Translations under genes and position numbers: made by a program
Part shown: positions 29,333-55,874 of the stretch, in pieces
Position numbering within the stretch: the first letter of the stretch is position 1
Layout of the letters: the number at the start of each line of letters is the position of its first letter
Notes under the pieces: generated by a model
What the model was told of the DNA's origin: nothing
Seen by the model: the letters and a program-made list of their open reading frames with translations, nothing else
The model's database searches: none
Source of the DNA: a virus
Length of the DNA: 64,000 nt
Virus record (IMG/VR): IMGVR_UViG_3300045941_000223
Span: 1 to 64,000 of that record
Direction: 5' to 3' (one strand)

Positions 29333-30943
29333 ATGCCTATCTCATTTGCTCAGATCCCACAGGAAATCAAAGTCCCGCTCTATTGGGTCGAGGTCGATCC
29401 GAGCAAGGCGGGGCTTCCGACCATCCGCCAGCCCGCGCTCTTGGTCGGCTCGATGCTCTCGACCGGCACGGCACCGCCGAACCAGCCGATTGCGATCGGC
29501 ACGCAGGCGCAGGCCGACGACCGCTTCGGACAAGGCTCCGAGCTGGCCAATATGTTCAAGAGCTTCTTCCACAACCAGTTCTCCGGAGAGGTATGGGGAG
29601 CTGGCGTTCCCGAGACCTCGCTGGGTGCCGGTACGCTTCAAGCGGCGAGTGGAACGATCGTCGTCACCGCGCCGCCGACCGCAGCCGGAACGATCCACTT
29701 GTACGTCGCGGGTGAGCACATCCCGATCAACTGCGGTCCGTCAGACACGATCGATGCCATCGCAGCCTTCATCGCGGAAGCGATCAACGACGATCTCAAT
29801 CTGCCGGTGTCGGCGACTGTCGCGACTGCGACGGTGACGGTGACGTGCCTGTGGAAGGGCATCACCGGCAACGATATCTCGCTGATGCTGAACTACTTCG
29901 GTGCGATCGGCGGACAGGAAGGTCCGCAGGGGCTGGTGCTCACCATGCCTGCGACTGGCTACCTCACTGGTGGCAACGGCGTTCCGGATTGGAACCCCGG
30001 ACCACCCCCGGCCGATCCCACCGTGATCGACAATATGGGCGAGCAGGAATTCGAGTATGTCGCGCTCGCGTGGACCGACACCGAAACGCTGCAGGCGTGG
30101 GATCTGGAGTACGGCTTCACCGACAACGGCCGGTGGGGCTGGCGTCGTCAGCTCTTCGGCCACATCTTCACGGCCAAGCGTGGCCTCTACTCCGATCTGA
30201 TTACGTGGGGCTTGAACCCTGCGATGGGCCGTAACTCGGGCGTGATCTCGACGATGGCGGTCGAGACGAAGAGCCCGACGCCGGTGTACGAGTGGGCCGC
30301 GGCTTACACCGCCAAGGCACAGCGTGCGCTGATCAACGACCCGGCGCGACCGCTGCAAACGCTGTCGCTCACTGCCGTCAAGCCTGCACCGTTGCACGAC
30401 CGGTTCAGCTTCGTGGAGCTGAACTCGCTCGCGGGCAGCGGGTTCGCAATTCAGAAGGCGGGATCGGACGGCTATCCGATGATCGCCCGGGAGCAGACGA
30501 CGTACCAATGGAACTTGTACGGTCAGGGCGACGACGCCTACGAGCTGGTCACCACGTTGGCCACCTTGGCGAAGCTGCTACGCAATCAGCGGCACGCAAT
30601 CACCACCAAGTTCCCGCGACACAAATTGGCCAACGATGGCACTAGATTTGGGCCCGGCCAAGCAATCGTGACGCCGGGAATAATCAAGGGCGAGTTGATC
30701 GCACAGTATAGGCAGGACGAATACAATGGTCTTGTAGAAGATACACGCAATTTCAAGCGTCATCTTCTGGTGGAAAGAGACCCGAATAACCCCAACCGGG
30801 TAAATGTACTGTATCCGCCTGACTTGATCAACCAGCTCCGGATCTTCGCGGTGCTGGCGCAATTCCGCCTGCAGTACGACCGCGGCATCGATGTCGAGAT
30901 CATCGGCCCGCTGACTTCGACCGCGATCACCGGTCGGCTCTAA
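29333..30943 (+). CDS. Tail sheath protein (Mu gpL-like)
   Basis: IPQEIKVPLYWVEVD, FGQGSELA, DPARPLQTL, FPRHKLANDG, PPDLINQLRIFA. Confidence 0.95.
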   Translation: MPISFAQIPQEIKVPLYWVEVDPSKAGLPTIRQPALLVGSMLSTGTAPPNQPIAIGTQAQADDRFGQGSELANMFKSFFHNQFSGEVWGAGVPETSLGAGTLQAASGTIVVTAPPTAAGTIHLYVAGEHIPINCGPSDTIDAIAAFIAEAINDDLNLPVSATVATATVTVTCLWKGITGNDISLMLNYFGAIGGQEGPQGLVLTMPATGYLTGGNGVPDWNPGPPPADPTVIDNMGEQEFEYVALAWTDTETLQAWDLEYGFTDNGRWGWRRQLFGHIFTAKRGLYSDLITWGLNPAMGRNSGVISTMAVETKSPTPVYEWAAAYTAKAQRALINDPARPLQTLSLTAVKPAPLHDRFSFVELNSLAGSGFAIQKAGSDGYPMIAREQTTYQWNLYGQGDDAYELVTTLATLAKLLRNQRHAITTKFPRHKLANDGTRFGPGQAIVTPGIIKGELIAQYRQDEYNGLVEDTRNFKRHLLVERDPNNPNRVNVLYPPDLINQLRIFAVLAQFRLQYDRGIDVEIIGPLTSTAITGRL

Positions 30944-31001: not shown

Positions 31002-31388
31002 ATGGCACAGAGATTTGCCGGGATCGCCTTCCTGTTCGTGGACGGCGTCCAACTTGCACTTCGCGGCAACTTCACCGTGAGCCCGTCGCCGATCGAGCGC
31101 ACTATGATCGCCGGTCAGGACCGGGTTCACGGCTATCAGGAATTGCCGCGCGTGCCCTACATCGAGGGCGACGTTTCCACGGTGCCCGAGCTGAACATCG
31201 AAGACCTCGATGGACAGACCGACGTGACCGTGATCGCGCAGCTCGCCAACAACAAGCAGTACACGCTGTTCGGCGGGACGTGCAAAGCCGCACTCGAAGC
31301 CAACACCCGCGACGGGCAGATGCGCGTGCGCTGGGAAGGCTTGATCTGCGACGAGATCGACCTAGGCCCGACCGCGGGCGCGGCGTAA
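31002..31388 (+). CDS. Tail tube protein (Mu gpM-like)
   Basis: AGIAFLFVDG...GQDRVHGYQELP..PYIEG. Confidence 0.9.
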   Translation: MAQRFAGIAFLFVDGVQLALRGNFTVSPSPIERTMIAGQDRVHGYQELPRVPYIEGDVSTVPELNIEDLDGQTDVTVIAQLANNKQYTLFGGTCKAALEANTRDGQMRVRWEGLICDEIDLGPTAGAA

Positions 31389-31398
31389 AGGAGGCGTC

Positions 31399-31800
31399 AT
31401 GAACAAGCCGCAACCACGCGAGGGCTTCGTCGCCGACGAGCCGACGCAGGTCGATCTGCAGACACTGGAGCGGGAGCCGGTCATCGAGCCGCTTCCCGCA
31501 GAAGTGTGGCCGGTCAAGGTCAAGCTGATGCACCGCGCCATTCGCAACAACAGTGGCGAGGAAACCCGCGAGCTTTCGTTCCGCGAGCCGACCGGCGGCG
31601 ATATCAATCGCTACGGCAACCCGGTGCGGGTCAATCAGGAAGGCGACGTGGTCATCGACGAGCGCAAGATGACCACCATCATGGCCGCCCTGTCGGGCGT
31701 GCTGCAACCGCTCATCGAACGCATGGACCCGCGCGACTGGAATTCGTGCGCGTATCGGTTACGCGGTTTTTTTCTTCCAGATCCACAGGCGTGGCTCTAG
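31399..31800 (+). CDS. Tail assembly chaperone
   Basis: LSFREPTGGD...MDPRDW; position; ends in a slippery GGTTTTTTT. Confidence 0.85.
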   Translation: MNKPQPREGFVADEPTQVDLQTLEREPVIEPLPAEVWPVKVKLMHRAIRNNSGEETRELSFREPTGGDINRYGNPVRVNQEGDVVIDERKMTTIMAALSGVLQPLIERMDPRDWNSCAYRLRGFFLPDPQAWL

Positions 31801-31970
31801 ACGACGAGAACATCATTATCGACTGCTATCGTCTAGCGCGCTGGTATCACCAGCCTCCGGATCTTTTCCTGAACATGCCTGTGAGTACGGTGCGGCTGCA
31901 CTTGCTGCGCACGATCCAGCTCGCGCGGATCATGCGACGCGAGGCAGCGGACAGCGAAGACAATGCCTGA
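31765..31970 (+). CDS. -1 frameshift extension of the tail assembly chaperone (G-T type)
   Basis: GGTTTTTTT at 31765-31773; the -1 frame is open to 31970 (LARWYHQPPDLFLNMP). Confidence 0.75.
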
Positions 31971-34860
31971 ATTCCAAGAGCTGAAGATCACCGTCTCGCT
32001 GCAGGACAATCTCAGCGCCGTGCTGGCTGAGATCAAGAAGCACATTGCCGAAATGCAGCATGTCAAGGGACATGACAAGCTGGGCGAGGAAGCGAGGAAG
32101 ACCGGCGAGCAAGTGAAGAGCCTGACGCATCACACCGGTCTGCTGGGGTTTGCGCTCGGCTACGCAACCAACGTGATCTGGGGCGCGCTCGATGAATTCA
32201 AAAAGAAGGCGGTGGATCTGGTCGCTAATACCAGCAAGTTGCGGAGCTGGGCCGAGGGCATGTCCGACTTTGCGCAACTGGCCAGACGACTTGGCGTGCA
32301 TCAGGGCGAGTTCAAGGCCGTGCATGATCAACTGATCCTGCAAGGCTTCACGTCGCCGCAGGCTAAGGAATTCATGGCGCAGATGGCCAGCATAACGGAC
32401 AAGATCAAATACAGTCCGCAATTCAACGAGATCAGAACGAAGATGCTCTCGTTCGCTGGCACGAACGTGGAGCTGTTCAACAAGCTGAAGGACTTGCTCG
32501 ACGAGTACGAGATCGCTGACACCTACGAGAAAAAAGCCAACGTCATCATCCGGTCGGTGCAAGCGGTCCGCGACAATCTCTTGAAACAGCCGGGCATGGC
32601 CCCGGAAACGGCAGCGAGAGCAGCGAGGGTATTCGCCGAGCAGGCGTGGGGTGTTGGTCCAGAAGTGGTCGGCATGAGCAGGCTGCTCGTCGAGCACTCC
32701 AGAGAGTATCTGGACAACATGGGGCGGATGGTCGTCGAAGCCGAGAAATACATGAAGGTGATGCACAATCTGGAGTACCAGACGCAACGGATCTCCGATG
32801 TGTTCATGCGCCTCAAATTGGCGATCTTCGTGATACCCGAGGAATGGAATGCCAAAGCCTACGAGAAGACGGCCGATCTGCTGGAATGGCTCACGTTGGA
32901 GCTATCACCAGAGGAAAGAAAGAAGCTCGAAGAGCGGTTCGGTGAGAAGTTGCGCGAGCGCACGCAGCAGCAGCGACCGCAGCGACCACCGGGGGCACCG
33001 CGCGGTGGGATGCCGTGGCGCTTCATGGGACTCGCCGACGAGAATAAGAAGCTGATCGAGCTGCACGATCAGGTGAAGGAGAGCGCCGACTACTTTCAGA
33101 TCATAACCAACGATCCGCGCCGCAGGGCACTCGGTCTGCTGTCAACACAGATGGGCGGGCTGGGCGCTGGGCTCGGCGGCGGCGACGGCTTCGGCGGCGG
33201 TGGCGGTGGCGGTGGTGGCCGCACCGGCACCGGAGCTGGCGCTGGCTATGGTGGCGGTGGACCACCGACGCCGCACTCGGGGGCCGCGCCGGGGAGCCGC
33301 GAGCAGGCATCGTCCGGCGGCGCTTCTGGTGGCGGGACGCCGTACTACTATGGCGGCAAGGTCACGATCGGCGACAAAGAATTCAATTATGGCACCGGCG
33401 GCGGTGGGCGCGGTGCACTCCCGTACGGGACTTACTCGGTCAACATCGGCACCGGCGACATTGGGCCGCTCGGCAGATCACGGCTCGGCTCGGTCGCTAC
33501 CATCGGCGGCTTGGGCGGCGTCGTCAACGACCCGCGCTATCCGGGCGCACCGCGACAAGGGATTCAGATTCACGCATCAAGCAGCCAAGACCTCGATCGA
33601 TTGTATACCGCCGGATGTTTCGCGGTGCCGAAGTCGCAGTGGCCAGCCTTCAAGCAAGCGCTCTTGGAGGAATCCAAGAAGGGGCCATTGTCGATAAATC
33701 TTGATCGAAGCGGGAGCGCGAGGATCGGGCCGACTTCGAGTATCACGGCTGCGAACCAGAAAGGTCACAATGCGCCGCAGGGCGGCGCGGAGGGCGAAAG
33801 CGATCCGATGGTTCTGCCGTGGAATTCATCCCATCCCGGTGGCGGTGCCTCTTGGGAGGCGCGGCAGACGCCACGCTACTATCGCGGCAAGGTCACGATC
33901 GGCGGGAAGGAGTTCGACTACGGCACCGGTAACATTGGTCGTGGCGCTGTTCCATGGGGAACCTACCCGATCAATATCGGTGCCAATGACATTGGGCGGA
34001 AGGGTAGGAAACTTGGCTCGGTTGCGACTCTCGGAGGTTTGAACGGGATCATCAACGACCCACGCTATCCCGGTGCACCGCGGACCGGAGTTCAGATCCA
34101 CGCGTCAAGCAGCGCAACTCTCGATCGATTGTATAGCGAGGGATGCTTTGCGGTGGCGCGGGCACAGTGGCCAGACTTCAAAGCCGCGCTCTTGGAAGAG
34201 GCGAAGAAAGGGCCATTGTCGATCAATCTTGATCCGAGCGGGCGCGCGATCATCGGCGAAACTTCGGAAGTTACGGCTCAGGCCAGTCGCAGTGGTGGGT
34301 TCGACGAAGGTGGTACGACCGGGCTTGAATTGTCCCGCGCTGGTCCACGCGGCATCTCAGCACGCGCGTCCGAGATTGCATCAGAACGTCAGCAGATGGC
34401 GGCGACCCGCTTCATGGCGAGCGAGGGCGGAAGCGGGACATACACTCCGTCACCCGAGCAGCAGCAACGCATGCAGAAAATCAGCGATGTCCTGCCGCGC
34501 TCGGCCAACGTGATCGATCTGAGACCGTATTCAAATGTCACCAATCCATTTCTACGCAAAGGTCTGATGGCGCGCGGAGGATGGAGCACCGAAGAGCGGC
34601 TACGCGCCGATTTTGAAAGAAGGATGGCCAAAGAGCACGAAGAGATGGCCGAAGAGATGCGGCGTGAGCTGGACCGCGACATGGGCACCGAGATCGACGG
34701 CGGCGAGGTTGAGGCTGGTGGCAATGTCGATGTTGAGATCCCGCCGGGTGTTGGCGCACCTGCGTCGCAGAACCTGTTCTCTCCGGTGCCGTTGAACCGG
34801 CAGACCATGATGGATCAGACGCCGAGAGGGCGGCCTTCACAGATTCCCGAGGCTGAATAG
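31963..34860 (+). CDS. Tape-measure-like protein 1 with two tandem L,D-transpeptidase/Tlde1-like domains
   Basis: Helical N-half; Gly linker; duplicated domain with G(I/V)QIHASS...LY(T/S).GCFAV. Confidence 0.75.
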   Translation: MPEFQELKITVSLQDNLSAVLAEIKKHIAEMQHVKGHDKLGEEARKTGEQVKSLTHHTGLLGFALGYATNVIWGALDEFKKKAVDLVANTSKLRSWAEGMSDFAQLARRLGVHQGEFKAVHDQLILQGFTSPQAKEFMAQMASITDKIKYSPQFNEIRTKMLSFAGTNVELFNKLKDLLDEYEIADTYEKKANVIIRSVQAVRDNLLKQPGMAPETAARAARVFAEQAWGVGPEVVGMSRLLVEHSREYLDNMGRMVVEAEKYMKVMHNLEYQTQRISDVFMRLKLAIFVIPEEWNAKAYEKTADLLEWLTLELSPEERKKLEERFGEKLRERTQQQRPQRPPGAPRGGMPWRFMGLADENKKLIELHDQVKESADYFQIITNDPRRRALGLLSTQMGGLGAGLGGGDGFGGGGGGGGGRTGTGAGAGYGGGGPPTPHSGAAPGSREQASSGGASGGGTPYYYGGKVTIGDKEFNYGTGGGGRGALPYGTYSVNIGTGDIGPLGRSRLGSVATIGGLGGVVNDPRYPGAPRQGIQIHASSSQDLDRLYTAGCFAVPKSQWPAFKQALLEESKKGPLSINLDRSGSARIGPTSSITAANQKGHNAPQGGAEGESDPMVLPWNSSHPGGGASWEARQTPRYYRGKVTIGGKEFDYGTGNIGRGAVPWGTYPINIGANDIGRKGRKLGSVATLGGLNGIINDPRYPGAPRTGVQIHASSSATLDRLYSEGCFAVARAQWPDFKAALLEEAKKGPLSINLDPSGRAIIGETSEVTAQASRSGGFDEGGTTGLELSRAGPRGISARASEIASERQQMAATRFMASEGGSGTYTPSPEQQQRMQKISDVLPRSANVIDLRPYSNVTNPFLRKGLMARGGWSTEERLRADFERRMAKEHEEMAEEMRRELDRDMGTEIDGGEVEAGGNVDVEIPPGVGAPASQNLFSPVPLNRQTMMDQTPRGRPSQIPEAE

Positions 34861-37782
34861 TTGCCTGAATTCGAAGAGCTGCGGATTTCTGTCCAACTGG
34901 TCGATAACGCATCGCCCGGGTTGGTCCGGCTGCGGTCGGAGATCGCATCGTTGGCATCGGGTGAAGTCCTGAAGAAGCAGGATTCGTTCGGCAAGTCGTG
35001 GGCGGATCTCGGCACCAAGGTCAAGGATTTCGCCGAGAACGCCAAGTCGCTGGGCACCGAGTTGCGTACGCTGGGTGTTCGCTTTGCTCTGCCGGTGGTC
35101 GGGCTCACCTTGCTCGCCCGCTGGATCATCAATACCAGAGAAGCGGCGTCGGCATTTGCCTCCGAGCTGTCCGGCATCGCTCGCACCGCCCGTTCGGTCG
35201 GAATGGATTCGGTCCATTTCAAGACTCTGACCGACAACCTCCAGCGTTTGGGATTGTCGCTGGAGACCTCGCAGAAAGCCGCTGCCGGATTCGCCGAAGC
35301 GCGCGGCAAGCTCATGGAAAGGGGCAACGAGCTTCACCAACAACTGATGGAGATGACCAAGGGTATTCCCGGCGCAACGCACAACATGCGGCAGTTCATC
35401 GAAACCTTCATCAGCATGTCCGACCGCCCGGAAGCGTTCAACATGATGATGGAGTCCGGGCTGAGCATCCGCAAAAAAATCGAGGATCAATTCGGCTCAG
35501 AGGCGGCGGCAAGATTCCATCGTCAATTCCTCGACTTTCTGACCGGCGGCATGGGGGCGGCGATAGCCGGGCTCGATCCCTCCGGAAGAATCAAGCCGCT
35601 GACCGAAGCTCAAAAAAAGGCGCAGGAAGAAGCCTTCAAAAACTCCCAAAAGATTTCGCAGGCCAACAAGGAGACGGAAGCCGCTGCAAAGCGAGCGGAA
35701 GAGGTCGCGCTGAGATTGGCGGTCGATGTTTGGGCCCCGCTCATCACTGGCATGAACACCGGGCTGGAAAAGGTCGCCAATCTGGTCGAGCGGATTGACC
35801 GGGTGGTTCGCAACTGGAAATGGCTCGGCGGCGGCGGCAATGAGGGCAGGCCCGATGAGGGCAAGCCGGTACGGTTCATGAGTGCTGGCATGGGGGAGCC
35901 GCTGCCGGATGTCGGTGGCAACGAGATCCCCGGCGGTACCGGACCCGGCACGTTGTTCGACGCGCTGAAAGAGTACCGCGATCTCGGGCGCTCGCGGATC
36001 GAGGATCGACGCACCGGCATGGGCGCACCGGCAGGCGAGCAGGGCGATGTGACCCAGCAGCTCACCGAGCAATTCAGGCGCTTGAACGAGTACCTGATGC
36101 TGCTGGTGCCACAGGGCAAAGGGCTCGGCCTGCTCTCGACGGAGATGGGCGGGCTCGGCAAAGGCTTCGGCACCGGCGGTGGTGTTGCTTCGCCGATGGG
36201 CGGCGGCGGTGGTGGGTTTGGTGGCGGCGGTGGCGGCGGCGGCGGTGGCGGGTTTGGCGGCGGCGGCGGCGGCGGCGGTGGTGGAGGCGGTGGAGGCGGC
36301 GGCGGTGGGCGTCCACCCGGGGCGCTCGATCCGAGCCACTTCGTCGATCCAGCGAAGCCCAGCGCGGTGGGCGTCACCGAACCGCAGAAAGGCGTGTTCG
36401 GCTTTGATCCGACCACCGGTCAGCCGCTGGCGATCGATCCCGGGACGTTAGCGCCGAAGCCGCCTGCTGGAAGCGTGACCCAACCACCGAAGGGCGGCGG
36501 CGGTGGTGGCGGTGGTGAGGGTATGCGCCGCGGTGACGCGCCTCCCGGTACGGACGCGCCGGGTATTTACAACAAGCTGCTCACAGCATTTCAGAATTCG
36601 AAATTGGTCGGCGTCGTGCCGCCTGATGGTGCGCGGTTTGGGATCACGACAGGATCTGCCGAAGAGTGGGCGCGGTTCGCTACTTCAATTGCCAACGAGG
36701 AGTCGAGTTTCAAGCCGTGGACTAAGAACGAGTACGGGGAGCGCTCCTATGGAATCTTCCAGTACGATCACTCGCAAGTGCCGGGAGGAAATGCATTCAA
36801 TGTAGATGCGTCGATTAGTGCGTTTGTCAGGGATGCTGAAACTTCGGTGAGAGAAGGAGGCATTCGCGATGCTCGCGGTGGCAAGGGCGGCAGAAGTCTA
36901 CTGGCTCGGCGGTTTTCGACTATTGGCAACCATCCCGAGCGCGCAATAAGAAGTTTGCCATTGGCTGGACGTGTGGGCGTAACGGCAACAGGCGGCCGTG
37001 GCCCCGTCACCGCTGATCCAGCCAAGCCGTTCCCGTGGACACCATCGACTGCAGGCGGCGCTGGCGGCGGTGATGTCATCAATCGCGATATCAGTCATCT
37101 CTCGCAAGGTCAGGCCAACGTCGGAGCATTCAATCAAGCTGTGAAGGGGCTGGTCGTTCATCACACTTCCGGTCGCGGGACGCCCGAAGGTGTCGCGACG
37201 ACGTTTCAGCAGCGCGGCTACCCAGCGCAATTCATCATCGATCGCGAGGGCAACATTGTCCGCTATCTGCCGGAAGGTGCGAGCGGCGCGCATGTCAAAC
37301 CCGGACAGGGCATTGGCAAGGGACTCGGCAATTGGAATTTGGAGGGCGTCGAGGTCATCGCAAGAAACGAAAAAGATGTTTTGCCAATTCAGCGCGAGGC
37401 CGTTGCCCGTCTGCTTGCCGAACGTGCTGCAAGGCACGGCTACGATCCCAAAACAGGTGTTTTCGGTCACGGCGAAATAAATCCGCACAAGGAACGCAAC
37501 GAAGGCTCGACTGCCCAAATGATTCGGGAAGGCAAGATAGCCATTCCGGATCGCGCGGTGCTCGATCGTGCGCAAGGCCGTGAGATCACTTCCAAGGTCA
37601 ACGCCACCGGCAAATTGGATGTTACCGTGCGCGCTCCGAAACGGACGCGCGTCGGCGTCAAGGGCTCTGGCGTGTTCGCCAAGACCGAGCTGGACCGTCA
37701 GACGACAATGCCAACGACACCACGTCAGAGCGCTCGCCAGAGCGAGAACGCTTCCATGGCAGAGCCAGAGTGGCAGGAGTGA
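34861..37782 (+). CDS. Tape-measure-like protein 2 with lysozyme/SLT-like and amidase_2 domains
   Basis: TTG start; paralogous N and C termini; EESSF...YGIFQY; LVVHHT...FIIDREG...GAHV...GVEV...FGHGE. Confidence 0.75.
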   Translation: MPEFEELRISVQLVDNASPGLVRLRSEIASLASGEVLKKQDSFGKSWADLGTKVKDFAENAKSLGTELRTLGVRFALPVVGLTLLARWIINTREAASAFASELSGIARTARSVGMDSVHFKTLTDNLQRLGLSLETSQKAAAGFAEARGKLMERGNELHQQLMEMTKGIPGATHNMRQFIETFISMSDRPEAFNMMMESGLSIRKKIEDQFGSEAAARFHRQFLDFLTGGMGAAIAGLDPSGRIKPLTEAQKKAQEEAFKNSQKISQANKETEAAAKRAEEVALRLAVDVWAPLITGMNTGLEKVANLVERIDRVVRNWKWLGGGGNEGRPDEGKPVRFMSAGMGEPLPDVGGNEIPGGTGPGTLFDALKEYRDLGRSRIEDRRTGMGAPAGEQGDVTQQLTEQFRRLNEYLMLLVPQGKGLGLLSTEMGGLGKGFGTGGGVASPMGGGGGGFGGGGGGGGGGGFGGGGGGGGGGGGGGGGGGRPPGALDPSHFVDPAKPSAVGVTEPQKGVFGFDPTTGQPLAIDPGTLAPKPPAGSVTQPPKGGGGGGGGEGMRRGDAPPGTDAPGIYNKLLTAFQNSKLVGVVPPDGARFGITTGSAEEWARFATSIANEESSFKPWTKNEYGERSYGIFQYDHSQVPGGNAFNVDASISAFVRDAETSVREGGIRDARGGKGGRSLLARRFSTIGNHPERAIRSLPLAGRVGVTATGGRGPVTADPAKPFPWTPSTAGGAGGGDVINRDISHLSQGQANVGAFNQAVKGLVVHHTSGRGTPEGVATTFQQRGYPAQFIIDREGNIVRYLPEGASGAHVKPGQGIGKGLGNWNLEGVEVIARNEKDVLPIQREAVARLLAERAARHGYDPKTGVFGHGEINPHKERNEGSTAQMIREGKIAIPDRAVLDRAQGREITSKVNATGKLDVTVRAPKRTRVGVKGSGVFAKTELDRQTTMPTTPRQSARQSENASMAEPEWQE

Positions 37783-37785
37783 TGC

Positions 37786-38433
37786 ATGGCCACCATCATT
37801 GAAGCTGGCAGGGGCCGTGGGCCGCATCGTCTTAAATCCTATTGGCGCGACAAGCTGGTACCGGCACATTTCCGCGGCGCGATGTTCCATGTCGAAGCTG
37901 GCGGCAAGTCGTCCGGAAGAAGAACCGTCGTCCATGAATTCCCCAAGCGCAACGTCCCTTATGCGGAGGACATGGGTAGGCGTGCAGTCGAGTGGAGTGT
38001 GCGCGGCTATCTGATCTGCTTCGTCGATGACACCGAAAGCGAACTCTACCGGCGAGACTACACGCTCCAGCGCGAGAAGGTGATCGCTGCGCTGGAGCAG
38101 GACGGGTATGGCCCGCTGCAGCTTCCGCTGCTGCCGCCGATGACGGTGATGTGCCAGCGCTACCGCGTCACCGAGGAAGAAAAGCTCGGCGGCTATTGCG
38201 TGTTCGACATGGAGTTCGTCGAGTTCGGCAAGCCGCCGCTCGCCGGGCCGCCGATGAGCGACGCGCAGCTCAAGGCGCAATCCGATGCACTGAAGGCGCG
38301 GACCATCCAAGCGCTCGCCAACTACGACACCGAGCTGCTGGGCCGCAAGACGACGCCGACCCCTGCGGGTCCGAGCGTGCCGATCTCGGAGATCATTCCG
38401 ATCGGGCCAACGATCCCCGGTCCCGGTCCCTAA
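37786..38433 (+). CDS. Mu gpN-like DNA circularisation protein, N-terminal part
   Basis: WRDKLVPAHFRG..F...GRRTVVHEFP...EDMGR. Confidence 0.85.
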   Translation: MATIIEAGRGRGPHRLKSYWRDKLVPAHFRGAMFHVEAGGKSSGRRTVVHEFPKRNVPYAEDMGRRAVEWSVRGYLICFVDDTESELYRRDYTLQREKVIAALEQDGYGPLQLPLLPPMTVMCQRYRVTEEEKLGGYCVFDMEFVEFGKPPLAGPPMSDAQLKAQSDALKARTIQALANYDTELLGRKTTPTPAGPSVPISEIIPIGPTIPGPGP

Positions 38434-38883: not shown

Positions 38884-40881
38884 ATGGCTCACATCCTCGC
38901 GGATCGCGTCCGCGACACCACCACGACGAACGGCGTCGGTGCCGTCACGGTCAGCGGCACCGCGCCGATACGTCATCGCACGTTCAGTGCTGTGGCCACG
39001 GCTGATGGCGACACGTTCCCGTACGTGATCGTCCATCGGACTGCGAACGAGTGGGAAACTGGTCTCGCGACCCGCGTGTCGGCCAACGTCTACGCCCGCA
39101 CCATTATCTATGCGCCGAACCCCGGCACGCCGGTGGACTTTTCGTCGGGCGACAAGGACATGGCGCTGGTCTTCACTTCCAACCCGACGCACGCCAACAC
39201 CATCGAACTCGGCCACCCGACCGACACGACGCTTGCGCGAAGTGCCGCCGGTAGGGTGTCGGTCGAGGGCTTGGACTTGCTGATCGGCAGCGATATCGCT
39301 GGCAAGGCCGATCTGGCGTCACCGGTCTTCACCGGCGATCCGCGGGCCCCGACGCCTGCGACGGCCGACAACGACACGAGCGTTGCGACCACTGCATTTG
39401 TGAAGGCGCAGGGGTATCTCGTCTCCAGCGACATTACGGGGAAGGCCGATCTCGCCAGCCCGATATTCACTGGCGATCCGAAAGCGCCCACGCCGACGAC
39501 GGCGGACAACGACACGAGCATCGCGACCACCGCCTTCGTCAAGGCGCAAGGCTATTTGGTGTCGAGTGATCTGACGCCCTATGCGTTGGACACTGACTTG
39601 GCAAACTACCAGCCGCTCGATGCAGAGCTGACGGCGGTCGCCGGATTGTCATCGAACGGCCTGATGGCGAGGACGGGAGCCGGTACCGCTGCCGCGCGCT
39701 CGATCGCTGGACCGGCGGCAGGCATCACGGTCTCCAATGCGGATGGCGTCAGCGGCAACCCGACGCTGGCACTGGCCAACGATCTCGCGGCGTTGGAGGC
39801 GCTGGCGGGAACGAACACGATCTACTACCGGTCGGGAGCGGATGCGTGGAGCGCCGTGACCATCGGCGGCAACATGACGTTCGCGGGAGGCGTACTGAAC
39901 TCGACCGCCGGTGGCGGTGGAGCGCCAACGAATGCTCAGTATGTTGTGCTGGCGCTCGATGCGACGCTGACTGATGAGCGGTTGTTGGCGTTCGGCACCG
40001 GGATATCGCTGACGGACGGTGGAGCTGGTGCCAGCGCCACCATCAACCTCGATGCCGATCTGGTGTCGTGGGCGGGCATCACGCGCGCAGCCGGTTTCGA
40101 CACATTCGTGGCGACGCCGTCGTCCGCCAATCTTGCGGCTTTGGTCACCGGCGAGACCGGCACCGGAGCGCTGATGTTCGGCACGTCGCCGGTGATCACC
40201 ACCGACATTACGATCCCGAATACCGGGCTGCATCTATTCGACACGGATGCCTCGCATGACCTGATCGTCAAGCCGGGCTCGAATCTAACCGCTGATCGCA
40301 CGTTCACGGTTGTCACTGGCGATGTTGATCGCACGTTGACGCTCACCGGCAACGTCACTTCGAATCAGGATGTATCGACGACTGGCACTCCGACGTTCGC
40401 GTCGATCACGTTGTCAAACGGTCAGATTGTCTTTCCGGCATCACAGGTCGCGAGCGCGGGCGCGAACACGCTCGACGACTATGAAGAAGGGACATGGACG
40501 CCGACCGTCACGTTTGCGACCCAAGGCGATAGGAGCATCGCAAGCCCAGGAATCGTCGGCTGGTACGTCAAGGTCGGCGGAATGGTGATGGCCGGTGGTC
40601 AGGTGTCCGGCACAATGAATTACACAACGTCGGGTGGAAACATACGCCTGCAGACCTTCCCGTTCACGCCGAGCCAGACGGCGATCGGAACGATCTTGAA
40701 CGGCGGGATGACGATCACCGGCTACACGCACGTCCAACTGATGCTGCAGGGGAGCAACACATACGCAGAATTTTATGCAAGCGATCCGGCGAACAATAAG
40801 GCCATCACGCCGTGCTCAGTTACGAACTTGCCGAACGGCAGGGCCTTCGATTTCAGATGGACCATGACCTACAGGGTGTGA
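38884..40881 (+). CDS. Fibre-like virion protein
   Basis: ADRVRDTTTT.G.G start; 2x KADLASP.FTGDP.APTP.TADNDTS.ATTAFV; LDDYEEGTWTP. Confidence 0.8.
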   Translation: MAHILADRVRDTTTTNGVGAVTVSGTAPIRHRTFSAVATADGDTFPYVIVHRTANEWETGLATRVSANVYARTIIYAPNPGTPVDFSSGDKDMALVFTSNPTHANTIELGHPTDTTLARSAAGRVSVEGLDLLIGSDIAGKADLASPVFTGDPRAPTPATADNDTSVATTAFVKAQGYLVSSDITGKADLASPIFTGDPKAPTPTTADNDTSIATTAFVKAQGYLVSSDLTPYALDTDLANYQPLDAELTAVAGLSSNGLMARTGAGTAAARSIAGPAAGITVSNADGVSGNPTLALANDLAALEALAGTNTIYYRSGADAWSAVTIGGNMTFAGGVLNSTAGGGGAPTNAQYVVLALDATLTDERLLAFGTGISLTDGGAGASATINLDADLVSWAGITRAAGFDTFVATPSSANLAALVTGETGTGALMFGTSPVITTDITIPNTGLHLFDTDASHDLIVKPGSNLTADRTFTVVTGDVDRTLTLTGNVTSNQDVSTTGTPTFASITLSNGQIVFPASQVASAGANTLDDYEEGTWTPTVTFATQGDRSIASPGIVGWYVKVGGMVMAGGQVSGTMNYTTSGGNIRLQTFPFTPSQTAIGTILNGGMTITGYTHVQLMLQGSNTYAEFYASDPANNKAITPCSVTNLPNGRAFDFRWTMTYRV

Positions 40882-40884
40882 GCG

Positions 40885-41208
40885 ATGGAAAAGTTGACGC
40901 TGATCGGGCAGATCGAGTTGACGGCCAATGCCGTCCAAGTCCGGTTGCATCTGACGATTATGGATGGCGAGAACAAATTGAGCGAACAGTACCACCGGTT
41001 CGCTCTTGACAGCGAAGCAGACGTGCAGGGCACCTATGATTCGGTCAACGCGCATCTCCAATCAATGGGCTGGTCGCCAATGTCGGCGGCGCAGATGACT
41101 GAGATTTCTAACGTCTATACGAATTGGCAGGAGAGTTTGGTTGCGGCTGGTGTGGAAGCGCAGAGGGCGACGGCGCAGACAACGGTGAAGTCGAAGACGA
41201 AGCGTTAA
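40885..41208 (+). CDS. Fibre-associated small protein
   Basis: VQVR...YHR pattern following a YEEGTWTP-type fibre. Confidence 0.6.
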   Translation: MEKLTLIGQIELTANAVQVRLHLTIMDGENKLSEQYHRFALDSEADVQGTYDSVNAHLQSMGWSPMSAAQMTEISNVYTNWQESLVAAGVEAQRATAQTTVKSKTKR

Positions 41209-41219
41209 AAGAACGCTCG

Positions 41220-44200
41220 ATGTCAATCACCGATCTCGGTTCGCTCGGCGCGACCGGCAGCACCGGCAACAATCAGGCTTCGCTTGCGCTTACGACGACG
41301 CAGGCGTGCTCGGTCGGCGATCTCGTCGTCGTTGTCGTCGCGGTTGATAACCGACTCGGTACTACACCGGCTGACGACGACGAAGTGTCGGGTGTCGCCG
41401 ACAATGCGGTCGGTAGTGAGAACGTATGGTCGAAGGCGGTCGGCTGGAGCTACGGCGGCGCGAGCCCGGCGGTGCAGGGCGGCGCGGCGGTCGCGATCTG
41501 GTATTCGGTCCTCAAAACCGCGCTCCCGACCGGGCGGACGATCACCGCGAGCTTTACCAGCAGCGGCACGTCCGATGCGACCGGCCTGACGGCGCGACGG
41601 TTCGGGACTGGCGGCCCGATCGGGGTCGTTGCCACCAACACCGGCGTTGTCAGTGCTGGACAGCCCGGATCGCTCGACGCGACGACTCCGAACCTTGAAC
41701 ACCTTCGCGTCCGCGGTATTGCGGGCGAGGTCGGCAACAACACATCGCTGACGCCGACCACCAACTGGACAGCATGGGCAAATGGCAACAGCGCAACATC
41801 CGGCACGATCGCCGAGATGTGTGCCCGGGCGGAAAGCCGGATCGTCACCGGCACCAGCGGGGCGTCGAACCCGACTTGGGTCGCGTGCGACATTGCCAAC
41901 GCCTACGTCGCTTTCCAAGAGATCATCAGTGGCGACCTAGATGCAACCGATGACCAAGATGTTGCGTCCTTCGACGGTGAGGTCACGACGCCAGCGGTCG
42001 AGGGCGACCTTGCCGCGACCGACGATCCGGACACTGCTTCGTTCGCTGGCGAAAGCATCTTCAATGCCGTTCTCGGCGCAACCGATGATCCCGACACTGC
42101 CGAGTTCGATGGCGATGTCACCAGCCCCATTGTTCTCGCCGAGACCGCCGACGATCTCGGCATTGCAACCACGGCTATCGCGGTCGCAGCAATTGCCAGC
42201 GAGAGCGGCGGCGGGATTCTCGCGGCGCTGGCAGCGACCGATGCGCCGGACACTGCTTCGTTCGCAGGCGACGTTACGGCGGGTATCATCGATGGCACGC
42301 TGGCGGCGACTGACGCTCCCGATGTTGCCGCTCTCAATGGATCGGCTGCATGGAATGCAGTGCTGGCGGCCAGCGAAGCGCCGGACGTGGTCGCATTCTC
42401 TGGCCAGAGCGTTGCACAAGGAACGCTGGCGGCCACCGATGCTCCGGACGTTGCCGCCTTCTCCGGAACAGCAGTCAACAATGGCACACTGGCCGCGACC
42501 GAGCAGGCGGACACCGCAGCTCTTGCCGGATCGGTTTATTGGGCCGCAACACTGGCGGCAACTGAGCAGGCGCTGGACACCGCGGCCTTCTCAGGCGGCA
42601 TTGTGGCCACTGGTACGCTGGCGGCGAGCGACGTGCTCGATACCGCGGCGCTGTCCGCAAGCGTGTATTTCTCATGCTCGCTGGCCGTCACCGAGGCACC
42701 TGACACTGCCGCATTCGCCGGGAACGCTGAATGGCGGGCGGTACTGGCGGCGACTGAAGCGCTGGATGTTGCGGCTCTGGCCGGAAAGGTCGAGTGGATT
42801 GCAACACTGGCGGCCACCGAGACCGCGCTCGATACCGCCGCCTTTGTCGGTCAGAGCGTTGCGCAAGGAATACTGGCCGCTACTGAGCAGGTGCTGGATA
42901 CCGCGGCCTTTACCGGCCAGAGCGTCGCACAAGGAACGCTCGCCGCTACGGAACAGTACGACGTTGCCGCCTTCTCCGGAACAGCGGTTGCCACCGGCAC
43001 ACTGGCCGCAACCGAAGCCATCGATCAGGCGTCCTTCATCGGCGAGGGCGTGGCGCTTGAGAGCAGCGGCACCCTCGCTGCGGTCGAACAGGCAGACGGT
43101 GCGGCGCTTGCCGGGCAGATCGAGTGGCTGGCGACGCTGGTTGCATCCGATACGCCGGATGTTGCAGCTCTGGCCGGTTCCGTTGCATGGAACGCCACGC
43201 TGGCGGCGACCGAGGCGCTGGATGTTGCGGCTCTGGCTGGCACCGTCCACTGGACGGCGACCCTCGCGGCCACCGAGACCGCGCTCGATACCGCCGCGCT
43301 TGCTGGTTCTGTCTATTGGGGTCTGACGCTCGCCGCCAGCGAGGCGGCCGATACGCTCTTCATGACCGCCGACGTTGTCTCGCCCGGCGGCATACTGAAT
43401 GTAGTCGAGGCGGCGGACACCGCGGCGGGCACCGGCAGCGTCTACTGGCCGGGCCACCTGCAGGTCACAGAGGCACCGGACACTGCCGCATTCTCTGGAA
43501 CGATCGTCGCCACCGGCACCCTCGCCGCCACCGAGGCTGTGGACAGCGCAGCCTTCTCGGGCACGATCGTTGCGACCGGTGTGCTGGCGGCCACCGATGC
43601 TCCCGATGTCGTGGCGTTCACCAGCACGGCGGTTGCGACTGGTGCTCTCGCTGCCACCGACGCGCCGGACGTGGCGGCGTTCTCTGGAAAGGCGGTCGCC
43701 ACCGGCACATTGGCGGCCACCGACGCCCCCGACGTTGCCGCGTTTTCCGGCACGATCGTCGCTACCGGTACGCTGGCCGCAAGCGAGGCGATCGATACCG
43801 CTGCCTTCGTCGGCAATCTCGTCCCGATCTCGACCGGTGTGCTGGCGGCAACCGACGCGCCCGATCAGGCGGCCTTCAGCGGGTTGGCGCTCGATGTCCT
43901 CACCGGCACGCTGGCTGCGACCGAAGCTCGGGACGTTGCCGCGTTCTCCGAATCCCCGCCGCTGCCCGGCATCCTGCAGGCCAGCGAAGCGCCGGACGGC
44001 ATCTTCATCGTCGGTCACATCGATATCCTCGAACCGATCGAGTGGACGCACATGGTCAAGAGCCAAGCACAGGAAGCAGCCCGCATCGTGCAGCGGGCCT
44101 TGCGCGAGCTGCTGTGGGTTTCGCCCACCCGCGGGCGGCCGGGATCGGACCTTCGGACGCAATGCGGCGACGTGATCACCCACGCCGCGCTGCTGATCCA

Positions 44201-44720
44201 GAAGAACCTGATCGGCGAGCCGCTGGCCGAATGCTTCGATCTGGCGGTCACCGCTGGCATCACGCAAAAGAAGCTCGCGCACGTGCGCAAGACGGTGGTG
44301 GCCGACACGGCGGTCAGCGTCGGTGCAGTCACCGTGAAGCACCATCTGACGTGGATGATCATGGCGGCCGAGTGCCGGGTGATCGCCGACATGCGGTTCT
44401 TCAGCCGCGAGGACGCGGTCAAGCTGAAGGACGATATGAACGCCGCCTTCAACGAGGCCGAGATCATCGCCGCCGACCAGATGGACGAAGCGAGCTACAT
44501 GGCGCTGGTCAAGCTGCACGCGGCACTCACCTTCCACCTGATCGAGACCGCGCGGCCCTTGCCGCGAGTGGTGGCGTGGCGGTTCGGCAAGCCGATGTCC
44601 ACCCGCATCGTCGCTCAGCGGCTGTACTACGACGCCGCCCGCGCCGACGAGCTGCGGCGTGAGAACAAGGTCGTCCACCCCGCATTCATGCGCAACTACG
44701 GAAGAGGCTTGTCGCTGTAA
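41220..44720 (+). CDS. Long repeat protein fused to a Mu gpN-like C-terminal domain
   Basis: About 30 repeats of about 21 aa, GTLAAT(D/E)APD(V/T)AAFSG; C-terminal IVAQRLYYDAARADELRRENKVVHPAFM. Confidence 0.75.
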   Translation: MSITDLGSLGATGSTGNNQASLALTTTQACSVGDLVVVVVAVDNRLGTTPADDDEVSGVADNAVGSENVWSKAVGWSYGGASPAVQGGAAVAIWYSVLKTALPTGRTITASFTSSGTSDATGLTARRFGTGGPIGVVATNTGVVSAGQPGSLDATTPNLEHLRVRGIAGEVGNNTSLTPTTNWTAWANGNSATSGTIAEMCARAESRIVTGTSGASNPTWVACDIANAYVAFQEIISGDLDATDDQDVASFDGEVTTPAVEGDLAATDDPDTASFAGESIFNAVLGATDDPDTAEFDGDVTSPIVLAETADDLGIATTAIAVAAIASESGGGILAALAATDAPDTASFAGDVTAGIIDGTLAATDAPDVAALNGSAAWNAVLAASEAPDVVAFSGQSVAQGTLAATDAPDVAAFSGTAVNNGTLAATEQADTAALAGSVYWAATLAATEQALDTAAFSGGIVATGTLAASDVLDTAALSASVYFSCSLAVTEAPDTAAFAGNAEWRAVLAATEALDVAALAGKVEWIATLAATETALDTAAFVGQSVAQGILAATEQVLDTAAFTGQSVAQGTLAATEQYDVAAFSGTAVATGTLAATEAIDQASFIGEGVALESSGTLAAVEQADGAALAGQIEWLATLVASDTPDVAALAGSVAWNATLAATEALDVAALAGTVHWTATLAATETALDTAALAGSVYWGLTLAASEAADTLFMTADVVSPGGILNVVEAADTAAGTGSVYWPGHLQVTEAPDTAAFSGTIVATGTLAATEAVDSAAFSGTIVATGVLAATDAPDVVAFTSTAVATGALAATDAPDVAAFSGKAVATGTLAATDAPDVAAFSGTIVATGTLAASEAIDTAAFVGNLVPISTGVLAATDAPDQAAFSGLALDVLTGTLAATEARDVAAFSESPPLPGILQASEAPDGIFIVGHIDILEPIEWTHMVKSQAQEAARIVQRALRELLWVSPTRGRPGSDLRTQCGDVITHAALLIQKNLIGEPLAECFDLAVTAGITQKKLAHVRKTVVADTAVSVGAVTVKHHLTWMIMAAECRVIADMRFFSREDAVKLKDDMNAAFNEAEIIAADQMDEASYMALVKLHAALTFHLIETARPLPRVVAWRFGKPMSTRIVAQRLYYDAARADELRRENKVVHPAFMRNYGRGLSL
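41930..44010 (+). repeat. Coding tandem repeats (about 63-70 bp unit)
   Basis: Recurrent ctggcggccaccga...gacgttgccgccttctccgg units. Confidence 0.85.
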
Positions 44721-46111
44721 TGTCCGATTTCAGGCTCGATCTCGACGAGGTCGTCGTCACCGGCGACGATCCGTCGCGTCTGCAGGACGAAGGCACGCCC
44801 GGCAACCCGCGGCAGCAAACGTCGTCGTCCATACCCAACAGCAGCGGCAGAGCAGAAGGCATTGGCGGCCAGCAGGATTGGCCGAGCCGCGATGAAGTGG
44901 CGGTGCTCGAAGTCAACAATGTCAGGTATGAAAATTGGACTTCGGTGTGGGTGCAGCACCGCATGATGGAATGGTGGCCGCTTTTCCGGTTCACGTGCGC
45001 TGAATATTCGCCGGTGCCACCAGCGTGGCCGCAACTGCAATTCAAGCCGGGCGACACCTGCAAGATTTGGCTCGGCGGCTACTTGGCGTTGGCAGGCCGC
45101 ATCCTTGTCCGGCAGACGGCCTACGACGCCGACAATCATCAGGTGCTGCTGATCGGAGTAGGTCACCAGTGGTGTGGCTCGCGTGCTTCGATCATTCACA
45201 AGGATGGCAATTTCGACAACAAGGATTTCATGACGATCGCGAACGAAGTATTCGCCCCGTTCGGCAGCAAGTTCATTCCGAGAGGCCAGCCGGATATGGA
45301 GCCATACGAGGAAGCGCAAGCGGGCCGGGGCGAAGTGACCGCTGACTTCATTGAACGGCTCGCTCGCTTCCGCGATGTGATCCTAGGTGTCGATCCAAAC
45401 GACCCCGCCGGTAAAAACTACGTGGCGTTCTGGCCGCATATCCAGAAGAGCGACATTGGGTTGATCGAGGGCGAGAACATTCTGCGCTGCCAGTGCACCA
45501 TCAAGATCAACGATATGTTCAATCCGTACTACGCCGAAGGCGGGAGCAACGGTAACGACGAGAAGAACGGCAGGAAGGCGTCCGAGATGGGAGCCCGCGC
45601 CGATGGCGTGCTGCCATGCTATTCGCCCCTGCTCATTCCGGCCGAGATGCCGGTAGCGAACGATGGCCAGCTCCAGAAGCGCGTCAACCAAGAGCGGGAT
45701 CTTCGCGACTACGCGATCTTCGAAGCCAACGTGACCGTCGCCGGATGGCTGCGCAATCGCGCCACCGGACTGTGGAAGGCCGGTGACTACGTCTACGTCT
45801 GGTCGCCGATGGCGATGATCGACCAGCTCATGGGCATCAAGACCGTCACGTTCTCGCAGGACACCAACGCCGGTACGACCACCACGCTGGAGCTGGTGCA
45901 GCCGGGCCTTCTGAACAATCAGATTGCCGCCGACCCCGGCAAGACCGGAGTGCGAAAGCCCGGCACTTCGACCGGCACCACCAACGATCCAGCGCCGCCG
46001 ACGCCGATCGAGCCGGTCCCGGCACCGAACCAGCCCGATCCAAACCAGCCGCTGCCCGGCGAGAGCATACCGGGCACGCCCGGCATCGGCGGTATGGGCG
46101 GCGCTCCATAA
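44720..46111 (+). CDS. Baseplate hub (Mu gpP/gp44-like)
   Basis: YENWTSVWV, KPGDTC.I, LIEGENIL, VTVAGW..GLW. Confidence 0.85.
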   Translation: MSDFRLDLDEVVVTGDDPSRLQDEGTPGNPRQQTSSSIPNSSGRAEGIGGQQDWPSRDEVAVLEVNNVRYENWTSVWVQHRMMEWWPLFRFTCAEYSPVPPAWPQLQFKPGDTCKIWLGGYLALAGRILVRQTAYDADNHQVLLIGVGHQWCGSRASIIHKDGNFDNKDFMTIANEVFAPFGSKFIPRGQPDMEPYEEAQAGRGEVTADFIERLARFRDVILGVDPNDPAGKNYVAFWPHIQKSDIGLIEGENILRCQCTIKINDMFNPYYAEGGSNGNDEKNGRKASEMGARADGVLPCYSPLLIPAEMPVANDGQLQKRVNQERDLRDYAIFEANVTVAGWLRNRATGLWKAGDYVYVWSPMAMIDQLMGIKTVTFSQDTNAGTTTTLELVQPGLLNNQIAADPGKTGVRKPGTSTGTTNDPAPPTPIEPVPAPNQPDPNQPLPGESIPGTPGIGGMGGAP

Positions 46112-55100: not shown

Positions 55101-55874
55101 ATGGCAACGATCAATCGAAGAGTGCTCGATATCAGCCACCACAATTCGATCAGCGATTACGACGCCATCAAGGACGCCGGGATCATCGGCATCATCCACA
55201 AGGCGACGGAGAGCGATCACTTCATCGACGACGACTACGAGCCGCGCCGCAAGGAGTTCATCAAGCGTGGATTCCTGTGGGGCGCGTACCACTTCCTGCG
55301 GCCCGGGAACATGGTCGAGCAGGCGCGCTTCTTCCTCGACGTGGCGGGCAGCGATCCGTCGTATCTCTACTGCCCGGACCATGAGGACGACGGCGTCAGC
55401 CTGTCGGATCTCAAGGAGTTCTGCAGAGAGATCGAAAGATTGACCGGCCGCACCGGCGCGCTCTACAGCGGCCACGTCATCAAGGAACAGCTCTCGGGCA
55501 GGGACGACTATCTCGCCACGTGGCGGCTGTGGCTCTGCCACTACTCCAACACCCCGAGCTGGCCGACCTCGACGTGGCCGCAATGGTATTTGTGGCAGTA
55601 CGGCGACGGGACTGCCGGGCCACCGCCGCAGGGCTGTCCCGGCGTCACTGGCGGCGTTGATGTCAACTCATGGAACGGCACCGACGACGAGCTGCGATCG
55701 AGCTGGTCGGGCGGCGGCGGGGTGCCGATCGACCCGACAGTCCCGGTGCCGACCGAGGTCGTGCTCGAACAGCTCACCACGCAGATGCGGCCGGACATGG
55801 TCAGCGCCTTGAAGCCGTACAACATCAAGCGCAACGAGCCGCCGCCTGCGGAGCCGTACCATGGCGACTCGTGA
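55101..55874 (+). CDS. Endolysin 2: GH25 lysozyme
   Basis: LDISHHN, HKATE, GAYHF, DHE, LWQY, VDVN. Confidence 0.92.
   Translation: MATINRRVLDISHHNSISDYDAIKDAGIIGIIHKATESDHFIDDDYEPRRKEFIKRGFLWGAYHFLRPGNMVEQARFFLDVAGSDPSYLYCPDHEDDGVSLSDLKEFCREIERLTGRTGALYSGHVIKEQLSGRDDYLATWRLWLCHYSNTPSWPTSTWPQWYLWQYGDGTAGPPPQGCPGVTGGVDVNSWNGTDDELRSSWSGGGGVPIDPTVPVPTEVVLEQLTTQMRPDMVSALKPYNIKRNEPPPAEPYHGDS

Follow-up and report, generated by a model that had tools for sequence, protein, structure and literature searches.

The window analyzed here covers positions 1 to 64,000 of a virus record of 77,254 bp (IMG/VR IMGVR_UViG_3300045941_000223), which is rated complete by CheckV. The record represents an uncultured, contractile-tailed phage, the host of which is probably a Bradyrhizobium-like soil bacterium. 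Two adjacent genes of the window, TMP1 and TMP2, code for paralogous tape measure proteins (TMPs), which have common N- and C-terminal ends and carry different predicted peptidoglycan enzymes in between. The pair had been noticed in an original prediction that was made from the sequence alone. We consider it probable that both are working proteins of the tape measure family in one Mu-like contractile tail, and we favor a mixed oligomer that would bring both sets of enzymes to the cell wall.

Paralogy and common architecture of TMP1 and TMP2

The two genes and their parts are listed here, with TMPN and TMPC denoting family profiles of the N-terminal module (N-module) and the C-terminal motif (C-motif) that were built from relatives.

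31963..34860, +: TMP1, 965 aa, ATG start (N-module, hinge, Gly-rich linker, two His/Cys domains of L,D-transpeptidase (LDT) fold, C-motif)
31963..32967, +: TMP1 N-terminal tape measure module, aa 1 to ~335; TMPN profile 9e-85
33148..33267, +: TMP1 Gly-rich linker, aa ~396-435, with the conserved LGLLSTQMGGLG hinge just before it
33328..33747, +: TMP1 LDT-fold domain, copy 1, aa 456-595; His537, Cys552
33853..34272, +: TMP1 LDT-fold domain, copy 2, aa 631-770; His713, Cys728
34633..34839, +: TMP1 C-terminal conserved motif, aa ~891-959; TMPC profile 7e-17
34846..34863, +: gene junction, consisting of GAGG, 8 nt, TAG (TMP1 stop) and at once TTG (TMP2 start)
34861..37782, +: TMP2, 973 aa, TTG start (N-module, hinge, long poly-Gly, lysozyme-fold domain, Amidase_2, C-motif)
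34864..35829, +: TMP2 N-terminal tape measure module, aa 2-323; TMPN profile 1e-94; phrog_167 2e-8
36145..36537, +: TMP2 Gly-rich region, aa ~429-559, the first 56 aa being 77% Gly
36526..37020, +: TMP2 lysozyme-fold domain, aa 556-720; Glu614-Ser615; YGIFQY at 630
37114..37527, +: TMP2 Amidase_2 domain, aa ~752-889; PF01510 1.1e-11
37528..37731, +: TMP2 C-terminal conserved motif, aa 890-957; TMPC profile 9e-25

The open reading frames (ORFs) lie exactly where the original prediction had placed its adjacent 965- and 973-aa genes. It had also proposed that they share their N-terminus, a mid block and their C-terminus. A BLASTP comparison of TMP1 with TMP2 aligns residues 1-310 with 22% identity (E 2e-13) and the last ~60 aa with 40% identity (E 1e-3). 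The mid block, which ends in LGLLST(Q/E)MGGLG before the poly-Gly, has a local alignment score of 73, a value reached by 0 of 1000 shuffles (mean 26.8, sd 4.6). All blocks on which the predicted relationship hinges are thus significant by pairwise alignment, and each end of both proteins is also matched by the corresponding family profile, as listed. At the level of sequence, TMP1 and TMP2 are confirmed as paralogs.

The common chassis starts with a helical N-module of ~330-430 aa, beginning with M-P-E-F-x-E-L, followed by a hinge, a poly-Gly linker and a C-terminal motif of ~60 aa. In the TMP2 linker, more than 30 glycines follow one another almost without interruption (aa ~446-483, 36196-36310). 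The tape measure gene is frame-broken in several related contigs, namely at loci L030 (intact in L029) and L047 (intact in L042) and at L098 and L126 from metagenome-assembled genomes; the cause may be slips in the assembly or genuine variation in length.

Assignment to the tape measure family

Gene position, homology and matches to PHROG families place both proteins in the tape measure family, in agreement with the original prediction. TMP1 is encoded directly downstream of the tail assembly chaperone (TAC), TMP2 follows TMP1 without a gap, and the pair is located between the tube and hub genes, which is the position of a tape measure gene. The TMP2 N-module matches phrog_167 (tail length tape measure protein, 2e-8), and TMP2 also matches phrog_58 and phrog_4704. 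Tape measure or lytic-tail PHROGs are matched by 11-13 of the 18 family N-modules. One relative (P0005) matches Pfam TMP_2 at 1.4e-4, which is below the cut-off. When compared to PDB, the N-module profile matches only coiled-coil and helical-bundle chains, which is no more than suggestive of a tape measure.

The payload of TMP1

The insert of TMP1 consists of two 140-aa His/Cys domains, which are 71% identical as protein and 72% identical as DNA. Both copies contain the motif QIHASSS…GCFAV. Among 28 family members, G96 and C97 are invariant, and H82 is kept in at least 90%. Neither Pfam nor NCBIfam has a match to TMP1 or to the isolated domains (Pfam on the isolated domains down to E 10), and the YkuD (PF03734) and Tlde1_dom (PF10908) models do not match anywhere in the whole 77-kb genome even at E 10. 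A phmmer search of 1.84 billion representatives detected ~250 relatives of the domain, counted as clusters at 50% identity, and most of these are located inside proteins of 600-1400 aa.

The predicted L,D-transpeptidase/Tlde1-like nature of these domains holds up at the level of fold, with the catalytic His and Cys aligned. When PDB is searched with a profile made from the 28 members, only five sequences are matched (Csd6, two of Tlde1a and two of Pgp2), with weak E-values of 0.013-0.6; all five have the L,D-transpeptidase fold, and the IH…GC of the domain is aligned to the IH…HGC of Tlde1a and the VH…GC of Csd6. The AlphaFold2 (AF2) model of copy 1 has a predicted local distance difference test score (pLDDT) of 91.4. 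Its best structural match is Tlde1a (Z 7.3, root mean square deviation (rmsd) 3.0 over 107 aa, 23% identity), followed by Pgp2 (Z 7.2), Csd6 (6.6) and Bd1075 (6.5). Z scores below 8 are middling according to VIA-align's own note, and the assignment is based on the motif and on the consistency of the list: all of the top 19 matches have the LDT fold (Z 7.3 to 4.0), and unrelated folds appear from Z 3.4. The top matches by Foldseek are also all of the LDT fold, with weak E-values of 0.08-0.6. We therefore regard the His/Cys domain as a novel and divergent family of sequences that have the L,D-transpeptidase fold but are outside Pfam YkuD and Tlde1_dom.

The domains probably act as L,D-carboxy- or endopeptidases on bonds linked to meso-diaminopimelic acid (meso-DAP), by analogy with Tlde1a, Csd6, Pgp2 and Bd1075. 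In Rhizobiales, 3-3 cross-links and DAP-tethered outer-membrane proteins are abundant in the cell wall, which would provide a clear use for such an enzyme.

The domain is also present in proteins of only 150-290 aa (P0109, P0119, P0123, P0049, P0061), the N-termini of which resemble signal peptides or membrane anchors. The family is thus not confined to tape measures, and the signal-peptide-like starts of P0109, P0119 and P0123 fit a periplasmic wall enzyme. A scan of GTDB genomes with two peptide patterns found no relative of the domain, which is not proof of absence.

The payload of TMP2

For TMP2, a lysozyme/SLT-like domain followed by an amidase had been predicted, and both parts of this assignment stand. 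The insert has a lysozyme fold with an invariant Glu-Ser, followed by Amidase_2. Glu614-Ser615 is invariant in 11 relatives, as is the G..Q motif. The domain profile aligns with the region of the catalytic Glu in C-type lysozyme (E 0.007; W-E-S of human lysozyme). The AF2 model (pLDDT 84) has DslA (6ta9) as its best match (Z 13.3, rmsd 3.3 over 140 aa, 19% identity; Foldseek E 0.011). The next is MltF (9.8), and the matches at Z 8-10 comprise MltF, muramidases, insect lysozyme, phiKZ gp144 and MltC. Pfam SLT (PF01464) scores below its threshold (13.4 bits versus 21.3, E 0.057).

The amidase is well above its Pfam cut-off (45.7 bits versus 26, aa 759-874). The residues HHT (His767/768), GH (His869) and EG are strictly conserved among six family members. 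At the position of the third zinc ligand, which we presumptively located from the sites of T7 lysozyme and AmpD, the invariant E-G (Glu881) is found, thus neither Cys nor Asp.

Twin and single tape measure genes in related phages

We collected 43 IMG/VR loci (designated by L numbers) through the His/Cys domain and used profiles to search each locus for the N-module, the C-motif and the three payload domains. Because the loci were chosen for that domain, the share of pairs among them is not a frequency among phages. All loci with enough flanking sequence have a sheath closely related to that of the window, so that they belong to one tail lineage. Twin genes, each with an N-module and a C-motif, were found in close kin of the window, in L008, in the group of L009/L011/L016/L017/L021, in L015 together with L042/L043, and in L025, L026 and L032. 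This amounts to about seven diverged lineages of uncultured phages with twins, in addition to one Bradyrhizobium prophage that is described below. A single gene is present in L013, L029, L031, L035, L038, L039, L041 and L044, often with two payload domains.

The partner of the copy that carries the LDT domain has Phage_lysozyme2 in the L009, L016 and L025 types (1e-19 to 3e-20) and a DslA-like domain in L043. Judged from these domain matches, the glycan cutter and the His/Cys domain of a pair are often on different copies. With varied payloads on common ends, the family is thus a chassis for exchangeable wall enzymes.

An independent sample was assembled by sheath similarity, with one genome per GTDB species. 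The nearest relatives in this sample are prophages from Xanthobacteraceae, among them Bradyrhizobium and Pseudolabrys (63-78% identity), which points to a host among the Hyphomicrobiales. Nearly all of these prophages encode a single tape measure (740-970 aa), and the His/Cys domain is absent from all of them. The statement in the original prediction that tailed phages normally have one tape measure agrees with these nearest named prophages (about one pair among ~47) and with the literature searched.

The only pair in this sample is from Bradyrhizobium sp. SRL28 (L059:12578-17604). It consists of an 806-aa protein with a DslA-like domain and a 910-aa protein without a recognized enzyme. Locus L059 is at about 579763-601289 of NZ_JAHEAG010000001.1. 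Among named, cultured genomes, no other was found to have a twin pair of the window's tape measure family, and SRL28 is a possible experimental system. A prophage of Bradyrhizobium stylosanthis BR 446 (L048:12581-15148) has a single tape measure with a CHAP domain (28 bits versus a cut-off of 26).

Other searches returned little. A tblastn search of TMP1 and TMP2 against 50,697 deposited phage records found no match at E 1e-5. A phmmer search of the whole proteins against PDB sequences gave only Gly-rich noise, and in the first, word-indexed homolog search, which yielded only 3 relatives, Gly-rich words dominated.

Coupling, selection and evolution of the pair

At every pair junction, the start of the second gene is on the stop of the first or within a few bases of it. 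While TMP2 begins immediately after the TAG of TMP1, the arrangement elsewhere is TAA ATG or TAATG. The varying stop codons and frames indicate translational coupling rather than read-through. Since TMP1 and TMP2 are in the same frame and only one TAG apart, fusion of the two by read-through or recoding was considered. It was rejected: the stops in related pairs are TAA, TAG or TGA, and each second gene has its own start, with another frame or an overlap in L015, L025, L026, L032 and L059.

For either copy, the ratio of nonsynonymous to synonymous substitution rates (dN/dS) between orthologs is 0.12-0.32, as under purifying selection. Neither copy has been lost between L015 and L042/L043, where dS is saturated.

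In a tree of the N-modules, the paralogs are sisters in L032, L026 and L025 (support 100). An older split is common to L015/L042, and another is found within the L009 group. Given the sister paralogs, one ancient duplication behind all pairs is not supported. When L025 is compared to L009, the payload regions are orthologous (68-69% identity) and the gene order is reversed. The N-modules of L025 are 66% identical within the phage but only 39-42% identical to the N-modules of their payload orthologs. The payload orthology indicates that the sister pairing is, at least in part, due to homogenization of the N-modules or swapping of the payloads and not to new duplication. N-modules and payloads thus have separate histories, either by gene conversion of the N-module or by payload swapping at the Gly-rich linker. 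That the N-modules are more alike within a phage suggests that both chassis stay fitted to the same tail.

The original prediction took the near-equal lengths of the two proteins as a sign of a shared length constraint. The lengths of 965 and 973 aa hold for the window, but the argument is weak and does not generalize to the relatives, where total lengths in pairs are 787/1095, 782/1016, 778/944 and 649/755, with differences of up to ~300 aa. Up to the Gly-rich linker, most pairs are of roughly equal length, with 396/429 aa in the window and 383/389, 387/391, 425/401, 385/356 and 360/399 aa in relatives; the pair of L059 (421/514) is an exception. If any part of these proteins measures the tail, it is more likely to be the N-terminal part together with the C-terminal anchor.

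Proposed function and alternative explanations

According to the mechanism that we propose, TMP1 and TMP2 would be translated as a coupled pair, with TMP2 having its own GAGG. The N-module may bind the chaperone and fill the tube lumen, and the C-motif may dock on the baseplate hub; through these shared contacts, both proteins would be loaded into the tail and thus be present in the virion. Upon contraction at infection, the tape measures would exit ahead of the DNA and their enzymes would open the wall locally by three cuts: in the glycan strands (lysozyme fold), at the bond between N-acetylmuramic acid and L-Ala (amidase) and at bonds involving meso-DAP (His/Cys domain). A mixed oligomer in each tail would spread the bulky enzyme cargo over different chains. 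A stricter version, with an obligate mixed oligomer that is probably a trimer and with N-modules kept matched by gene conversion or co-adaptation, is offered tentatively, as a possibility only.

Several points weigh against a mixed oligomer or against the assignments on which it builds. Known tape measures are homotrimers, and the literature searched holds no mixed tape measure for any phage. The tube lumen is about 4 nm wide, as estimated from known tails, and would be crowded by folded enzyme domains. In single-gene relatives (P0004, L039, L041), one chain bears two or three of these domains, so that two genes are not needed for several enzymes. The total lengths in related pairs differ, as given above, and the N-modules of the window are only 22-24% identical to each other, a divergence that would be compatible with separate assemblies as well. 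Neither PHROG nor Pfam has a direct match to the TMP1 N-module, and this protein is linked to tape measures solely via its homology to TMP2 (E 2e-13) and via the family profile (9e-85).

The two proteins might instead form alternative tails, each with a homo-oligomer of either TMP1 or TMP2, so that a burst would contain two kinds of virion. This could be bet-hedging on the state of the wall, e.g., stationary-phase walls rich in 3-3 cross-links versus growing walls. Each paralog has a complete N-module, hinge, linker and C-motif and could assemble alone, and the divergence of the N-modules and the unequal total lengths in several related pairs would be accommodated as well. There is also a precedent for dependence on the wall state: the wall-hydrolase motif in the tape measure of mycobacteriophage TM4 helps only on stationary-phase cells (PMC1796659). 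The tight translational coupling, however, would set a fixed ratio per cell and leave no switch, and no regulatory element choosing between TMP1 and TMP2 was seen. The closer similarity of N-modules within a phage fits alternative tails and co-assembly equally and does not discriminate between them. The results described here fit both readings, which the original prediction had offered side by side, but we favor a mixed oligomer per tail and regard two kinds of tail as rather unlikely.

A division into one ruler and one passenger seems less probable still. One paralog would set the length, while the other would be an ejected enzyme carrier that retained its ends as loading and docking signals. 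Copies without a recognized enzyme (the first gene of L008, L032 and L026, the second of L015) look as if the roles had been separated, and payload and chassis evolve separately. Against this, both copies carry enzymes in the window and in the L009, L016 and L025 types, and the parts up to the linker are mostly of similar length within a pair, as if spanning the same lumen. We give hardly any credence to a redundant or decaying duplicate, or to TMP2 as a lysis enzyme. TMP2 does match endolysin and amidase PHROGs through its Amidase_2 domain, but it has full tape measure ends, and genes for a GH25 muramidase and a PG-binding protein are located elsewhere, at the end of the late operon, which rules it out as the endolysin. 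Decay is ruled out by the dN/dS ratios and by the retention of both copies; both ORFs are intact, and they remain paired across deep divergence.

The tail module and its genomic context

The late operon is encoded on the plus strand from ~21 to 56 kb. It begins with a capsid-protease fusion, portal, a collagen-like protein, sheath, tube, the TAC chaperone, TMP1 and TMP2 and continues with a Mu gp43-like protein, a hub similar to Mu GpP/gp44, wedge proteins, fibers, a PG_binding_1 protein and a GH25 muramidase. The features that surround the tape measure genes are as follows.

29333..30943, +: tail sheath gene; phrog_165 tail sheath, 2e-148
31002..31388, +: tail tube gene; phrog_185 tail tube, 1e-20
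31399..31800, +: tail assembly chaperone of P2 gpE / Mu gp41 type; Pfam Phage_TAC_7, 36.7 bits versus a cut-off of 25; phrog_166
31767-31773, +: slippery heptamer T TTT TTT, read from the sequence, in register with the chaperone frame
to TGA 31968-31970, +: -1 extension of the chaperone, overlapping the TMP1 ATG; the -1 frame ORF is 31506..31970
37786..38433, +: Mu gp43-like protein (DNA_circ_N), directly downstream of TMP2; PF07157, 66.3 bits versus a cut-off of 21; phrog_184
44720..46111, +: Mu GpP/gp44-like baseplate hub; Pfam GpP-like_1st, Gp44-like_2nd and GpP_4th; phrog_177
54170-55096, +: PG_binding_1 protein, 308 aa, candidate lysis gene at the late operon end
55101-55874, +: GH25 muramidase, 257 aa, candidate lysis gene at the late operon end

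With 38-42% identity between its sheath and those of SfV, SfI, SfII and other phages with Mu-type tails, the tail is identified as being of Mu type. A chaperone with a -1 frame extension is the classical layout immediately 5' of a tape measure gene, and from the canonical arrangement of G/GT type, we infer a programmed -1 frameshift in the chaperone gene. The gp44-like hub is the likely docking partner of the C-termini of both tape measure proteins. With a separate GH25 endolysin encoded elsewhere, the enzymes borne by TMP1 and TMP2 would serve entry and not lysis, and they are not the sole muralytic enzymes of the phage.

Three other ORFs of the operon deserve mention. The Mu gp43-like protein looks split. 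The 215-aa ORF at 37786-38433 matches the N-terminal half of phrog_184 and Pfam DNA_circ_N. The C-terminal half of phrog_184 (positions 261-401) is matched only by aa 997-1190 of a 1198-aa ORF at 41124-44720, which is 2.7 kb downstream. Between the halves are a 94-aa ORF, a 665-aa fiber-like ORF (38884-40881) and a 107-aa ORF. In the 751-aa ORF at 21049-23304, aa 115-244 match a head maturation protease (phrog_80) and aa 104-751 a major head protein (phrog_617); the location of this fusion upstream of the portal gene is an unusual order. A 608-aa ORF at 24856-26682 has strong matches to collagen-like and tail-fiber PHROGs. It is located between the portal and presumed head-completion genes and, as listed, overlaps the end of the portal ORF.

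Relation to known systems and implications

The tail modules of Mu (tape measure gp42) and of the SfV/SfI/SfII type have the same gene order: sheath, tube, a Phage_TAC_7 chaperone with a -1 frameshift, tape measure, gp43 (DNA_circ_N) and a gp44/GpP hub. They differ from the window in having one tape measure gene, whereas here there are two paralogs, each with folded wall enzymes behind a poly-Gly linker.

Tape measures that double as virion-associated entry lysins have been described, namely TM4 Tmp (motif 3), T5 Pb2, the phiIPLA35 TMP with a muramidase and phiCbK gp95 with a CHAP domain (PMC1796659; PMC6116005; PMC3556154). In these sources, they are single genes with one muralytic activity each. 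In contrast, the phage of the window may have up to three kinds of activity split over two paralogs. Neither paralogous tape measure pairs nor a Tlde1/YkuD-type (LDT-fold) domain in a tape measure is reported in the literature searched. For phage G, a single tape measure is described.

Tlde1a is an L,D-carboxypeptidase and exchange transpeptidase (PMC9638812). This effector of the Salmonella type VI secretion system (T6SS) (PDB 7UMA/7UO3) shares the His…Gly-Cys motif with TMP1 and, if the analogy holds, also delivery by a contractile injection machine into the periplasm. It differs in that the TMP1 domain is embedded in a tape measure, is tandem-duplicated, is not T6SS cargo and has no match to a Pfam or NCBIfam family. 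The L,D-carboxypeptidases Csd6, Pgp2 and Bd1075 are also among its best structural matches. DslA (Bd0314, PDB 6TA9), the best fold match of the TMP2 domain and well above MltF, is a Bdellovibrio lysozyme. That domain shares the invariant Glu-Ser and G..Q with the SLT/MltE lytic transglycosylases and with lysozymes but is below the Pfam threshold of the SLT family.

What is new here, as far as sequences can tell, is the recurrence of twin tape measure genes that are coupled, are both under purifying selection and carry complementary wall enzymes. The tape measure is usually treated as a homo-oligomer from a single gene that sets the tail length and opens the way for the DNA. Twin tape measures raise the questions of how length is read from two chains, how the cargo is packed in a narrow lumen and how the stoichiometry is set. 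The twin-TMP prophage in Bradyrhizobium sp. SRL28 provides a cultured entry point. If the mixed oligomer is real, phages would have responded repeatedly to the tight space in the lumen of tube and hub by dividing bulky enzymes among non-identical chains, and hetero-oligomeric tape measures would be a general, overlooked design. The His/Cys family, most members of which are in tape measures, is a candidate for a new class of virion-associated wall enzymes, in parallel to the T6SS effector Tlde1. If this assignment is correct, a new family of the L,D-transpeptidase fold would be a phage entry enzyme suited to walls such as those of Hyphomicrobiales, in which 3-3 cross-links or DAP-tethered outer-membrane proteins are abundant.

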